DNA of 64,000 bases. It comes from an uncultured Clostridia bacterium. GTDB taxonomy: Bacteria > Bacillota > Clostridia > TANB77 > CAG-508. Positions 24,401-27,488 of this stretch are shown here, piece after piece. How positions within the stretch are numbered: position 1 is the stretch's first letter; each line of letters starts with the position of its first letter. The position numbers and the translations under genes are program-made. The notes under the pieces are model-generated. The model made no database searches, had not been told where the DNA came from, and saw nothing but the letters and a program-made list of their open reading frames with translations. The stretch is from NCBI GenBank assembly GCA_947623285.1, contig CANQGP010000005.1, positions 68,757-132,756 of the forward strand. Reading direction: 5' to 3'.

Positions 24401-27400
24401 CTACTCCATTTATTTCCACTGTTTTAATTTTATATTTCTGTGATGAATTTGTACTATTAAATGTTACATATATTTTTTTACTTTGTGTGTCTATATGGTC
24501 TAATTTGTAATCTTTTAGCTCAAAATCATAATCATCTATCCATTCTATTTCTCCAGGTGATAACACTTCCGTTTTTTTATTATTAGTATCTTGCTTATCT
24601 GAGTCAAAATCATAAGTTATTTCTATTTCTACTTTATATTTCTTAAATTGCTCTATTTGTGTTAATTCAAAAGTCGTATTATCTATTGAAGTAAATTCTA
24701 ACTCTTCTATAGGCTTTTCTCCATCAGCTATTAGTCTTACTTTTCCACTTACAAATGTATCTTCTTGGTCTGATATTTTAAATGATAATTTTGGATTAGT
24801 ACCTTCACTTTTAGCATCAAAAGATAATGCACTTATTTGTGGTTTTATATTTTTTAATACTTCTATTTTTGTTGTATTGGTTGAACCAATTTGGTCATTT
24901 GCATAAACAAGTATTTGTGCATTATACTCAACTACTCCTGCTGTATCTGGTGCAGTAATTGTTGCTGTATATACTCCCTTTGAAACTTTGGTTAGTTTGT
25001 ATGTATTACCATCTATTATTATTGCGTTTGGATCTTCGTCAGTATTTGATTTTATTGTGTAAGTAATTTGGAATTGTTCATTTTTCTCTACATAATATTT
25101 TGTTTCTGCTTTTTCTATTGAAGAATAAATCAAGCTTGGAACAATTTTTGAACCAATCACTTCATCTTCATGTCGTAAACCATCACCTATATCATAAGTA
25201 GCAACTATTTCTATTGTATAATTTCCAGCTTGTAATATATTACCTAATATGAACTCTATAGCTGTTTCATTTCCTTCTAAAAGCTTTTCTCTTACTACGT
25301 CACCACTTGGATCTCTTAATACTGCTTTTATATTTTTTATTGTTTTATCTACATCTGTTATTTGAAGTGTTGCCTTTATATTTCTTACACCCTCTTGTGT
25401 TGGTTCACGCACAATGTTCACATCTATTTCTGCTTTTGGTGCCTGCTTTATAGGTTCCTTTATATATTCATAGCTTAGTTTTACATTATTTACGGTTATT
25501 TCTTTACCATTTGCTAGAATTACTTTTTGTACTGTTATTGTATTCTGAGCCCCTTTAATTCCTTTGTCTAATTCTACTTGATAAATGTTTCCTACTTTTT
25601 CCACTGTATACGTTTTGCCTGAAACTACAACTTTTTCTACATCGTAATATGAATTATATGTATTTTCAAATGTTAATAATAATTTATCTTGTTCTCTAAC
25701 TTGTTTTGGTAAATTCCAGTTTGTTCCTATAAATCCATAGTCTGCATTTACTTTTATTTTTTGTTCAAATGTTGTTGTACTACTATTTGTTGGTATATCC
25801 CCATAAAAATTTGAATCTAAGTCATAATTCACATCCACGGTTACTGTATACTCTTGGTCTTTTACTATATTAGGTAATGAGATTTTGTTGTTTTTATCGA
25901 TTTTGCTTAATTCCTTTTCAAATATTACATTTCCTTTGTTGTCTTTTACTGTTACCTTTCCTCCTGTGTATGCGCCATCTGTATCCTTTATTGTAAAGCT
26001 TAATTCTGTTTTTTCATTATCATTGTTTACAGTAAATTCATCAACTTGTGGTATTTCTTTCAATACATCTAACCTTATTTCGTAATTAGCATTTAATATA
26101 TTTCCATCTTCTAGTACAACACCTGTTACAATCAAGTTTTTAAGACCTGCTACATTTGGTGCTGGAAAAACTATACGATAGCTATTTTTTCCTCTTTTTT
26201 TCACAAGATATTGTTCACCGTTTATTACAACTTCTTTAATTTCTTGATATGGAGTAACTTCTATATCTAAATCTATGTATAATTCTTCTCCTTTTTTAGG
26301 TGTATGTTTAAATTCTGAACCAGCACTTTCTTTAATACTTGTTGTATAAGTTTCACCTGTGCTTGGTATAACTGAAGGTGTAACTGTTGGAGCTGCTGTT
26401 GGCGTTATGCTTGGTAATGTTGTAGGTGTAGTTGTTGGTTTCATCTCTGGTGATTGTCCTGAATTTTGGGCTTGCCCTCCACTCTGACTATCTCCCCAAT
26501 TCTGAGAACTTGAACTTCCATTTCCTCCACTCGATTGTGAATTATTGTTTCCATTACCATTTGAATTATTATTATTTGTATTATATTTTATATTTCTTAA
26601 TACTCTTCCAACATCTGCTGTTGAAATTTCACCGTCTAAATTAGTATCAAGTTGTGCATTATTTGTATCTGCATTTTGACTCTCTACTTTCTCATCTGGA
26701 TTTTCTATTTCTAATAAATAATTTACTATTTTATCTGCATCCTCATAATCAGTACTTTCGTCATTATTCACATCTGTCTTTTCCGTTTTTAAAATACTAA
26801 TTGTTAATATGACCATAGCTAATAAAGCAATTCCAGATATAATATAAATTGCTGTCTTTTTATTTTTATTTACTTTATTGTTTTTATTTATATATACCAA
26901 AAAAGCAGCCAACAAAATTATCATTACAATGGGTATTATTGCTAAATATTTTACTGGTTGTTTTTCAGCTTTTGCACTTATTTTTTCATTACTTGCATTT
27001 TTTATTTCATCAGGTGTTGAATTTGTTGTAACATCTCCAACTTGTACTTCAACACTATTTCCATCTATCGAAATATCATTTTCCCCGTCTGTTGACGTTA
27101 CATTTCCAACAGAAATAGTAGTCTTTCCTTGTTTTGCTTCATCACGTACTTTTAATTTAACTTGAACAAGTTTTTTTCCACTTTCTCCTGATTTATTAAT
27201 TAATGCAAATTTATTAGTTTTTGTATTATAATTAATATCAGACCAATTTTCTTGTTCCTCAAAATTCTCTCTTTCTATTGTTTCAAATACATCTTCATCA
27301 TAGCTTAGCTTCGCAGTATATGCATATGCTGCTTGCTCTTCTTTGCTAAAATTAATAGAAACAGTGATTTCATCTCCTGATTCAACACTGCTCTTATCAA

Positions 27401-27488: not shown

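Follow-up and report, generated by a model that had tools for sequence, protein, structure and literature searches.

The N-terminal region of a giant secreted M26 zinc metalloprotease, encoded in the 64-kb stretch of DNA that was analysed (hereafter the window), would constitute an anchoring cassette in which a cohesin and a dockerin, carried by the same chain on either side of a membrane hairpin, rather probably close on each other in cis, as judged from sequence comparison and structure prediction. What is new is the fusion of such a cassette to M26 proteases and the cassette as such, whereas a dockerin on a protease is not. The protein is encoded by a single uninterrupted open reading frame (ORF) of 6,021 aa (9423-27488, on the minus strand, as are all features given below), and the putative ribosome-binding site AAAGGGGA (27498-27505), read from the sequence, lies 9 nt 5' of its ATG. 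The coordinates and frame proposed in an earlier sequence-only reading proved right, the region 26586-27488 corresponding to aa 1-301 of this ORF. The modules follow each other in the order signal peptide, cohesin, linker of about 30 aa, first transmembrane segment (TM1), Lys-rich loop, second transmembrane segment (TM2), dockerin, stalk, and M26 protease. Only three hydrophobic segments were found in the whole protein (aa 1-22, 181-200, and 213-233), all of them N-terminal. The first is predicted from hydropathy to be a signal peptide (MKK...NVFA/KEK, the slash marking the putative cleavage; 27423-27488), and the cleavage position is occupied by a small residue, mostly Ala, in 20 of 21 aligned relatives. 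The gene neighbours are of housekeeping type, namely MutS, a radical-SAM/TRAM enzyme, VanW, an S11 carboxypeptidase, YtfJ, and ScpA, and no functional link was found from the genes flanking the protease ORF.

The cohesin module (aa 23-151, 27036-27422), which had been proposed from its beta-sandwich pattern, was borne out by both profile and fold. PF00963 matches aa 27-149 over positions 2-138 of its 139 (42.4 bits, E=1e-10, for a curated cut-off of 24.1 bits) and also matches 18 of the 21 aligned relatives, while the family HMM scores the module at 164 bits. This part of the AlphaFold model is a beta-sandwich with a pLDDT >90 over the domain, and the nine-stranded cohesin fold was recovered by Foldseek, the best 30 PDB matches being all cohesins, headed by 2jh2 of C. 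perfringens (E 2.5e-8, TM 0.78, rmsd 2.6 Å). The closest solved cohesins are those of C. perfringens NagJ (2jh2/2o4e/2ozn) and GH33 (2vo8), with a sequence E of 0.02. Besides, strands 8-3-6-5, which form the canonical dockerin-binding sheet, are conserved above the opposite sheet (2.75 versus 2.17 bits, p=0.0014, the assignment of strands to sheets assuming the canonical cohesin topology), and conservation within the whole cassette peaks at these strands and at the Ca2+ ligands of the dockerin. The module is predicted to bind a dockerin.

The identity of the dockerin module (aa 238-301, 26586-26777) was settled by its relatives. In the window protein, PF00404 covers aa 238-300 (profile positions 2-56 of 57) with 22.1 bits and an E of 1.8e-4 for a 340-aa query, or 23.8 bits and an E of 5e-5 for a 310-aa query, which is borderline against the curated cut-off of 22.9 bits. 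Despite this score, the claim of a dockerin with two Ca2+-binding loops, each followed by a helix, can be accepted because Dockerin_1 matches 16 of the 21 aligned relatives (best E 4e-13) and because Ca2+ ligands are invariant among them. Loop 1 (D239-D250, D-V-N-N-D-E-S-T-D-Y-E-D, 26739-26774) and loop 2 (D281-D292, D-T-N-L-D-G-E-I-S-T-A-D, 26613-26648) present their ligands at positions 1, 3, 5, 9, and 12, namely D239/N241/D243/D247/D250 and D281/N283/D285/S289/D292. Positions 1 and 12 of loop 1 and positions 1, 5, and 12 of loop 2 are invariant, the residues D239, D250, D281, N283, D285, G286, and D292 being the same in all aligned relatives. The AlphaFold model places helices at aa 248-260 and 290-306, after loops 1 and 2, and helix 3 is weakly conserved across the family. 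As a type I dockerin, the module would fold and bind a cohesin in a Ca2+-dependent manner.

Between the two modules, the announced pair of hydrophobic helices joined by a Lys-rich loop was found again by hydropathy. The linker that leads from the cohesin to TM1 (aa 152-180, 26949-27035) is 25-32 aa long in most relatives, with a median of 30 aa; no LPXTG was found before TM1 in the window protein, where the linker ends in ...AEKQPVK-Y181. TM1 (aa 181-200, YLAIIPIVMIILLAAFLVYI, 26889-26948; predicted helix 184-202) and TM2 (aa 213-233, AIYIISGIALLAMVILTISIL, 26790-26852; predicted helix 208-234) enclose the loop NKNNKVNKNKKT (aa 201-212, 26853-26888), whose net charge is +5, for a family median of 11 aa and +4. 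By the positive-inside rule, the loop is predicted in the cytoplasm and thus the cohesin and the dockerin both at the outer face of the membrane, as had been expected. TM2 together with the Lys-rich loop resembles a signal peptide or a signal anchor. Five residues separate TM2 from the dockerin in the window protein, and in the family the first Ca2+ ligand lies 2-9 aa after TM2, with a mode of 5. In the subfamily of the window protein, the segment that joins TM2 to the dockerin shows no conserved small-x-small site of signal-peptidase type, the juxtamembrane motif being usually N-x-K-K-D or K-K-A-D. As a separate matter, phase variation at the DNA of the Lys-rich loop can be discarded, the longest run of A there being 5 nt.

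C-terminally to the dockerin, a low-complexity linker (aa 302 to ~385, 26334-26585), rich in N/S/G/Q and then in P/T, possibly spans the wall. It is followed by a stalk of ~4,300 aa (aa ~386-4700, 13389-26333) built of super-repeats of ~400 aa, which are visible by fragment-versus-self BLAST, the whole-protein self-BLAST returning the identity match alone. The remaining part (aa 4701-6021, 9426-13388) is an M26 region of the IgA1-protease/Zmp type according to Pfam, NCBIfam, and PDB matches, and the metalloprotease to which the modules were said to be attached is thereby real: Peptidase_M26_N scores 54.4 bits, the solved IgA1 proteases 7jgj/6xja/7uvk are matched by phmmer with an E of ~1e-34, the match spanning aa 518-1216 when the C-terminal 1,321 aa are numbered on their own, and an HExxH motif is present as HETLH at aa 5695 (nt 10392-10406). 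Peptidase_M26_C of Pfam was not reported for the window protein but was so for its relatives P0116 and P0132. The NCBIfam models of ZmpB/A/D match with an E of 1e-40 to 1e-27, and since their scores of 94-139 bits stand against an 'exception' cut-off of 3000, no orthology to ZmpA, ZmpB, or ZmpD was found; judging by sequence, the window protease is a distant M26 family member and none of the named enzymes.

The cassette is not confined to this protein. Homologous proteins amount to 445 at E<=1e-3, dozens of which match aa ~5-300 unbroken at their own N-terminus, and the cassette was recognised with fixed spacing in about 110 non-identical proteins. Among the best 150 matches, all 22 complete long relatives (2,251-6,181 aa) end in an M26 C-terminus with HExxH. 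Two sequences stop early, P0001 ending in a chimeric low-coverage contig (with a GC jump in L005) and P0002 being cut by a contig end. A word-indexed protein search gave just 3-5 short matches with no bearing on the architecture. At the genome level, a scan that used a 6-sequence alignment, and is hence biased towards the close subfamily, yielded 49 related loci, all from metagenome-assembled genomes (MAGs) of uncultured Clostridia or Bacilli, just as all relatives are metagenomic. At each of the 49 loci, the protease ORF carries exactly one cohesin and one dockerin, and with the family HMMs the rest of the 64-kb window gave no further cohesin or dockerin of the family type. Signal peptide, cohesin, hairpin, and dockerin stand in one unbroken ORF at at least 42 of these loci, a +1 frameshift between cohesin and TM1 being restricted to one lineage (L001-L004 and L034). 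Since the reading frame runs on without a break both in the window and at these independent loci, the fusion by assembly error of a cohesin-anchor gene with a dockerin-protease gene can be rejected. Moreover, the two modules are retained together across 20-45% identity, and several MAGs possess two paralogues. The cassette looks like a conserved means, apparently not described before, by which Gram-positive gut bacteria keep IgA1-protease-type enzymes on their surface.

The series of MAGs that supplies 48 of the 49 loci is called 'Lapin', a name that suggests the rabbit gut. The rabbit has 14 IgA subclasses. As a matter of speculation, the expansion of IgA1-protease-type enzymes in these MAGs might be linked to this diversity.

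The sequence-only reading had overlooked that the hairpin belongs to a known plan, as a signal peptide, an LPXTG motif, two transmembrane segments, and a second signal-peptidase site form the N-terminal plan of the streptococcal IgA1 protease and ZmpB/C/D, the SP-LPXTG-TM-TM succession being a hallmark of the streptococcal Zmp proteases (PMC3518915). The window protein shows the signal peptide and the two ensuing transmembrane segments, its C-terminal protease is homologous to those of IgA1 protease (ZmpA) as well as ZmpB, ZmpC, and ZmpD, and the overall succession of signal peptide, anchor element, two TMs, repeats, and protease is shared (PMC3518915). Unlike these streptococcal proteins, however, it has no LPXTG, inserts a 130-aa cohesin before TM1 and a dockerin just after TM2, and has a stalk of ~4,300 aa, compared to repeats of 131-1,561 aa in streptococci; in the literature searched on Zmp proteases, no mention of a cohesin or a dockerin was found. 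The two plans meet in distant relatives of the window protein (P0065, 67, 68, 71, 77, 85, 111, and 115-117), where LPXTG directly precedes TM1. Pfam scans identified Dockerin_1 and Peptidase_M26 in two of these members, P0085 and P0116. In sequence terms, the LPXTG-type cassette is the streptococcal Zmp anchor plan with a cohesin in front and a dockerin behind, and the motif in these relatives speaks for a function as anchor and handle, and less for the building of a lattice.

In such an arrangement, anchoring to the cell would fall to the cohesin, and the dockerin would serve the protease as a handle, the two modules of one chain binding each other in a Ca2+-dependent manner. Where LPXTG is present, sortase would attach the cohesin to the peptidoglycan and thereby sever the rest of the chain; as this cut would fall between cohesin and dockerin, the pair would have to rejoin non-covalently and would then retain the protease on the cell. 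In the window protein, the chain would most likely stay intact because neither an LPXTG motif nor a clear site after TM2 is present, and the pair would close in cis over the hairpin, which would give the 5,700 aa of extracellular stalk and protease a compact footing next to the membrane. Such a clamp at the membrane surface is favoured on account of both missing sites and of the AlphaFold model of the cassette, with a pTM of 0.71 with the signal peptide and of 0.79 without it (pLDDT 86). As the largest single domain makes up just 44% of the modelled chain, this high pTM indicates a confident prediction in which the two modules and the hairpin form a single assembly, the pTM being here a proxy that could also reflect packing other than a real interface. 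That the two modules of one chain are a cognate pair, as already put forward in the sequence-only reading, is made more plausible by the strict 1:1 count at the 49 loci, the fixed spacing, the conserved dockerin-binding sheet, and this predicted assembly, which together argue for it. Nevertheless, the benefit of a high-affinity pairing between covalently joined modules is not obvious.

This last difficulty would disappear if the window protein, too, were cut and docked, a less probable scheme in which TM2 and the Lys-rich loop, as its n-region, would act as an internal signal peptide, or another protease would cut near the membrane, so that dockerin, stalk, and protease would be freed and held only by the TM1-anchored cohesin, in a releasable manner. 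A strong non-covalent pair kept beside a covalent link would thereby be accounted for. The same route has been proposed as the secretion model of the streptococcal Zmp proteases, which includes a second signal-peptidase site after TM2 (PMC3518915), and a signal-peptidase-like A-x-S/A site follows TM2 in the LPXTG-type relatives; as counted by a noisy regular expression with false positives and false negatives, 11 of 19 motif-positive cassettes contain A-x-[ASGT], versus 22 of 88 motif-negative ones. The window protein itself offers T-I-S/I (aa 229-232) as a possible -3/-1 site. However, this sole candidate sits within the hydrophobic run and is absent from the closest relatives, L007 and L008, and the subfamily has no conserved small-x-small site at this place.

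The evidence for a cognate pair (1:1 count, geometry, and conservation of the sheet) would apply equally to binding in trans, where the cohesin would hold the dockerin of a neighbouring molecule or of a paralogue and thus form chains or patches of surface protease, as in the lattice or daisy chain of the sequence-only reading; the several MAGs with two paralogues could provide such partners, and two molecules in the same membrane would offer the same geometry as the cis pair. This possibility seems improbable, though, as the 30-aa linker and the 5-aa spacer tether the modules within a few nanometres, so that cis binding should outcompete trans binding if sterically possible. In addition, the AlphaFold monomer is confident as a closed assembly, and the LPXTG relatives follow a logic of anchor and cargo, not of polymer.

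Still less credit can be given to separate partners for the two modules, the cohesin recruiting other secreted dockerin proteins, so that the protease would act as a membrane-bound mini-scaffoldin, and the dockerin plugging into a separate wall-anchored cohesin. Further cohesin-dockerin genes do exist in these organisms: at one locus (L027), a dockerin-bearing repeat protein adjoins an SP-cohesin-LPKTG protein, and the window cohesin has many relatives among single cohesins with a sortase anchor and among multi-cohesin proteins. Against this, the family dockerin HMM did not pick up the dockerin of L027, the 1:1 ratio within the same ORF holds at 49 of 49 loci, no further family-type module lies in the window, and a dockerin located 2-9 aa off the membrane would be hard to reach for a wall-bound partner. 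Finally, it is very unlikely that the modules have ceased to bind anything, as a cohesin-like spacer and a plain Ca2+-binding EF-hand pair with a stabilising or sensing role at the membrane, for although the window dockerin is borderline in Pfam, EF-hand models match 5 of 21 relatives (E>=6e-4), and the PDB gives weak matches to calmodulin (E 0.3-0.4), no Pfam model fits the window protein better here than Dockerin_1, which also matches 16 of 21 relatives versus 5 of 21 for EF-hand_1, the modules stay together despite wide divergence, and within the cohesin conservation is highest on the canonical binding sheet.

The placement of both modules in one chain sets the window protein apart from other systems with the same modules. 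In R. flavefaciens, ScaE is a sortase-anchored anchoring protein with a single cohesin. Related stand-alone cohesins (e.g., at L027) show the order SP-cohesin-LPXTG-TM-Lys/Arg tail, and the general build of sortase-anchored single-cohesin proteins, SP-cohesin-linker-(LPXTG)-TM-Lys/Arg tail, equals the first half of the cassette, the cohesins being homologous; however, these are separate genes whose partner dockerin resides on another protein, whereas in the cassette the charged tail of such an anchor protein runs on into the signal-peptide-like TM2 of the cargo that it anchors itself. The C. perfringens toxins, whose cohesin-dockerin pairs are non-cellulosomal, likewise carry single cohesins on host-directed enzymes in a low-GC Firmicute, but the cohesins and dockerins of these glycoside hydrolases lie on different enzymes, which they link into complexes, and there is neither a membrane hairpin nor a protease, while the window protein has both modules in one chain, flanking the anchor. 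Overlooked in the sequence-only reading, dockerin-bearing peptidases are already documented in R. flavefaciens FD-1 (PMC2930009) and in the Limousia mucinolysome (PMC12997984), the term 'M26' being absent from the latter paper. There, too, a dockerin displays a peptidase on the cell, yet it docks onto multi-cohesin scaffoldins encoded elsewhere, and these peptidases have no same-chain cohesin and no TM hairpin. A cellulosome-type scaffoldin assembles several dockerin enzymes on several cohesins; the window protein is none, since it carries a single module of each kind and no further one lies in the window.

More generally, and more tentatively than the cis closure, the cassette may be a self-encoded device for cutting and re-docking, in which, after cleavage by sortase and/or a hairpin peptidase, the cohesin and the dockerin-tipped protease would re-associate non-covalently. 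If true, this would also make sense of the N-terminal LPXTG-TM-TM anchor of streptococcal IgA1 proteases, which has long been a puzzle.

Cohesin-dockerin pairs are known as connectors between different proteins. In the window family, a matched pair instead stands on both sides of the membrane anchor of the protein that carries it, and this is conserved across a large family of giant IgA1-protease-type enzymes of gut Firmicutes. If the pair binds as proposed, it would represent a new means of holding very large enzymes on the Gram-positive surface, and possibly also of releasing them. The cassette moreover lends itself as a model in which to study how pneumococcal IgA1 protease, ZmpB, and ZmpC are held by their atypical N-terminal anchor: in contrast to the short N-terminal peptide of streptococci, its two modules behave well and can be assayed. 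A compact self-anchoring tag for surface display might also result.

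The cassette-coding part (residues 1-301; window 26586-27488, minus strand) lies inside a single uninterrupted ORF of 6,021 aa (9423-27488, minus strand), with a good ribosome-binding site read upstream and an inverted repeat, weak as a terminator, 3' of it. The signal peptide (aa 1-22, …NVFA followed by KEK) precedes a beta-rich module (aa 23-151), a 29-aa linker, a first transmembrane segment (TM1, aa 181-200), the loop NKNNKVNKNKKT with a net charge of +5, a second transmembrane segment (TM2, aa 213-233) and, starting five residues past TM2, two D-x-N-x-D…D loops with a helix after each (aa 239-301); aa 1-22, 181-200 and 213-233, all N-terminal, are the only hydrophobic segments of the whole protein. 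Then come a linker rich in N/S/G/Q and P/T, a stalk of ~400-aa super-repeats totalling ~4,300 aa (13389-26333, minus strand) and a C-terminal region of ~1,300 aa with the M26 protease. In the stalk, fragment offsets of ~400 aa were seen about 10 times, and the only Pfam hints there are weak ones, to Ig-like or fn3 domains.

Just downstream, a separate 592-aa ORF (7458-9236, minus strand), whose product matches nothing in Pfam and has several hydrophobic segments at its N-terminus, is apparently its own transcription unit. The flanks (843-9236 and 27760-31682) hold chromosomal housekeeping and sporulation genes (MutS, radical-SAM/TRAM enzyme, VanW, S11 D-Ala-D-Ala carboxypeptidase, YtfJ, ScpA), which together with ~29% GC suggests the chromosome of spore-forming Clostridia rather than a mobile element.

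The sequence-only reading had called a cohesin-like module (aa 23-151) and a dockerin-like one (aa 238-301) on a metalloprotease, and judged from profiles and a modelled fold all three are real. Pfam Cohesin scores 42.4 bits on aa 27-149 against a cut-off of 24.1, and AlphaFold, supplied with 21 relatives, models aa 25-150 as a beta-sandwich, which among PDB structures best matches solved cohesins, first of all the non-cellulosomal 2jh2 of C. perfringens (E 2.5e-8, TM 0.78); these C. perfringens cohesins also top the PDB sequence search. The cohesin model also resembles, more weakly than true cohesins, the 'CLIPPER' domain 9ifr (rank 31, E 1e-5), solved recently in a Gram-negative fibrillar adhesin. 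Dockerin_1 reaches 22.1-23.8 bits on aa 238-300, varying with query length, against a cut-off of 22.9; despite this weak score the dockerin is accepted because 16 of the 21 relatives match Dockerin_1 (best E 4e-13) and because the Ca ligands D239, D250, D281, N283, D285, G286 and D292 belong to the few alignment columns that show no variation. The C-terminal region matches Peptidase_M26_N (54 bits), the NCBIfam ZmpB/A/D models (E 1e-40 to 1e-27, far under their ortholog cut-offs) and the solved IgA1 proteases of pneumococcus and Gemella (E~1e-34), and carries HETLH at aa 5695.

The cassette recurs in a whole family of proteins. An exhaustive HMMER protein search with aa 1-310 returned 445 proteins at E<=1e-3, dozens of which align over aa ~5-300 in one run at their own N-terminus; each of these dozens has a signal peptide and a TM pair, with two Ca loops directly past TM2. 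Among the best 150 hits, all 22 complete long ones (2,251-6,181 aa) finish in the M26 domain. When one genome of each prokaryotic species was scanned, with patterns biased to close relatives, 49 loci (L007-L055) came up, all in MAGs of uncultured Clostridia or Bacilli; the 'Lapin' series accounts for 48 of them and a different study (SRP314395) for the remaining one. The nearest are 72-76% identical, and the ORF is unbroken through the cassette in at least 42. Two paralogues are present in several of these MAGs. Across about 110 non-identical cassettes, the cohesin-to-TM1 distance has a median of 30 aa (mostly 25-32), the TM1-TM2 loop a median of 11 aa and a net charge of +4, and TM2 lies 2-9 aa (mode 5) from the first Ca ligand.

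Some relatives deviate (P0078, P0087, P0097, P0113, P0138): four are small secreted proteins with a cohesin and dockerin-type Ca-loop motifs and no hairpin, and in one, of 2,056 aa, the cohesin and the TM pair lie some 1,000 aa in from the N-terminus. In one lineage (L001 at 8890-8940, also L002, L003, L004 and L034), one additional base around agtaatGGaaaaacag sets the cohesin out of frame with the TM1-dockerin-protease part; this frameshift recurs identically in contigs of at least four samples, an intact paralogue (L035) lies in the same MAG as the frameshifted copy, and a pseudogene, a strain mutation or read-through frameshifting could be at play. The L005 contig, carrying the closest short homologue (P0001), jumps to much higher GC past TM1 (~2300-2559) and probably represents a chimera assembled at low coverage.

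Streptococcal M26 proteases (IgA1 protease, ZmpB, ZmpC, ZmpD) have an atypical N-terminus, ordered as signal peptide, LPXTG, two TM segments, repeats and protease, the second TM being a proposed second signal peptide (PMC3518915). This makes the hairpin a property of the protease family. LPXTG is absent before TM1 of the window protein (…AEKQPVK-Y181). A distant cassette branch (P0065, 67, 68, 71, 77, 85, 111, 115-117) has LPQTG, IPKTG, LPHTG or LPYAG immediately N-terminal to TM1 and A-x-S/A after TM2; the two members scanned, P0085 and P0116, match Dockerin_1 and Peptidase_M26 in Pfam. Many stand-alone relatives of the cohesin follow the order signal peptide, cohesin, LPXTG, TM and Lys/Arg tail, the layout of a classical sortase-anchored anchor. 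At locus L027 (275-2655), a gene of this kind (LPKTG, Lys tail) adjoins that of a 515-aa repeat protein with a C-terminal canonical dockerin, which looks like an ordinary two-gene anchor and cargo in an organism of the same kind. The cassette thus reads as a cohesin anchor protein whose tail has been joined to the signal peptide at the head of a protease with a dockerin. In LPXTG members, sortase would cut the cohesin away from the rest of the chain, and the cohesin could then have a role only by re-binding the dockerin; this is the strongest argument for a cognate pair.

For the window protein, the simplest reading is a chain that would stay intact, both modules outside, and close in cis, a reading supported by the AlphaFold pTM, isolated beta-bridges and the conservation of one cohesin sheet. 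The pTM is 0.71 for aa 1-310, and 0.79 (pLDDT 86) in a control run with the signal peptide left off and with 37 sequences; since the cohesin is only 44% of the control chain, cohesin, hairpin and dockerin seem to be placed as one assembly. In either model, aa 172-173 of the linker (nt ~26970-26975) and aa 287-288 of Ca loop 2 (nt ~26625-26630) each appear as an isolated beta-bridge of two residues; the two bridges probably pair with each other, and suggest that the cohesin-TM1 linker packs on the dockerin. In solved complexes, the 8-3-6-5 sheet of cohesins is the dockerin-binding face; strands assigned by us to this sheet show 2.75 bits of conservation vs 2.17 for the opposite sheet (p=0.0014).

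Processing at TM2 with later re-docking of the dockerin-protease, which the motif of the distant branch would suit, is possible at a modest probability, the window protein's subfamily having no conserved small-x-small site after TM2 and typically N-x-K-K-D there. Binding in trans, into chains or patches as the sequence-only reading imagined, would agree with a cognate pair and is rather unlikely beside the one-assembly model. Separate partners for each module are less likely still: with HMMs specific to the family, every protease ORF yields just one cohesin and just one dockerin, and the 64-kb window no further module of either type. That the modules are relics that no longer bind, or simply a pair of EF-hands, as the borderline Dockerin_1 score might hint, is very improbable, given the Dockerin_1 matches in 16 of the 21 relatives.

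The novelty once seen in a dockerin on a protease was overstated, dockerin-bearing peptidases being already on record (PMC2930009; PMC12997984). Full-text searching found no paper in which a cohesin or a dockerin is tied to Zmp, to M26 or to an IgA1 protease, and the Zmp papers returned contain neither word. Apparently new is that two devices of known kinds, a connector made of cohesin and dockerin and the N-terminal anchor of Zmp proteases, are merged into a self-contained cassette. 'Lapin' is French for rabbit, and the MAG series presumably stems from rabbit gut. With 14 IgA subclasses in rabbits (PMC6082545) and M26 being the family of the IgA1 proteases, it is tempting to suspect a link between the cassette proteins and these subclasses. 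Speculatively, closure in cis might provide a rigid base, reinforce the anchor mechanically or act as a latch opening on Ca loss.
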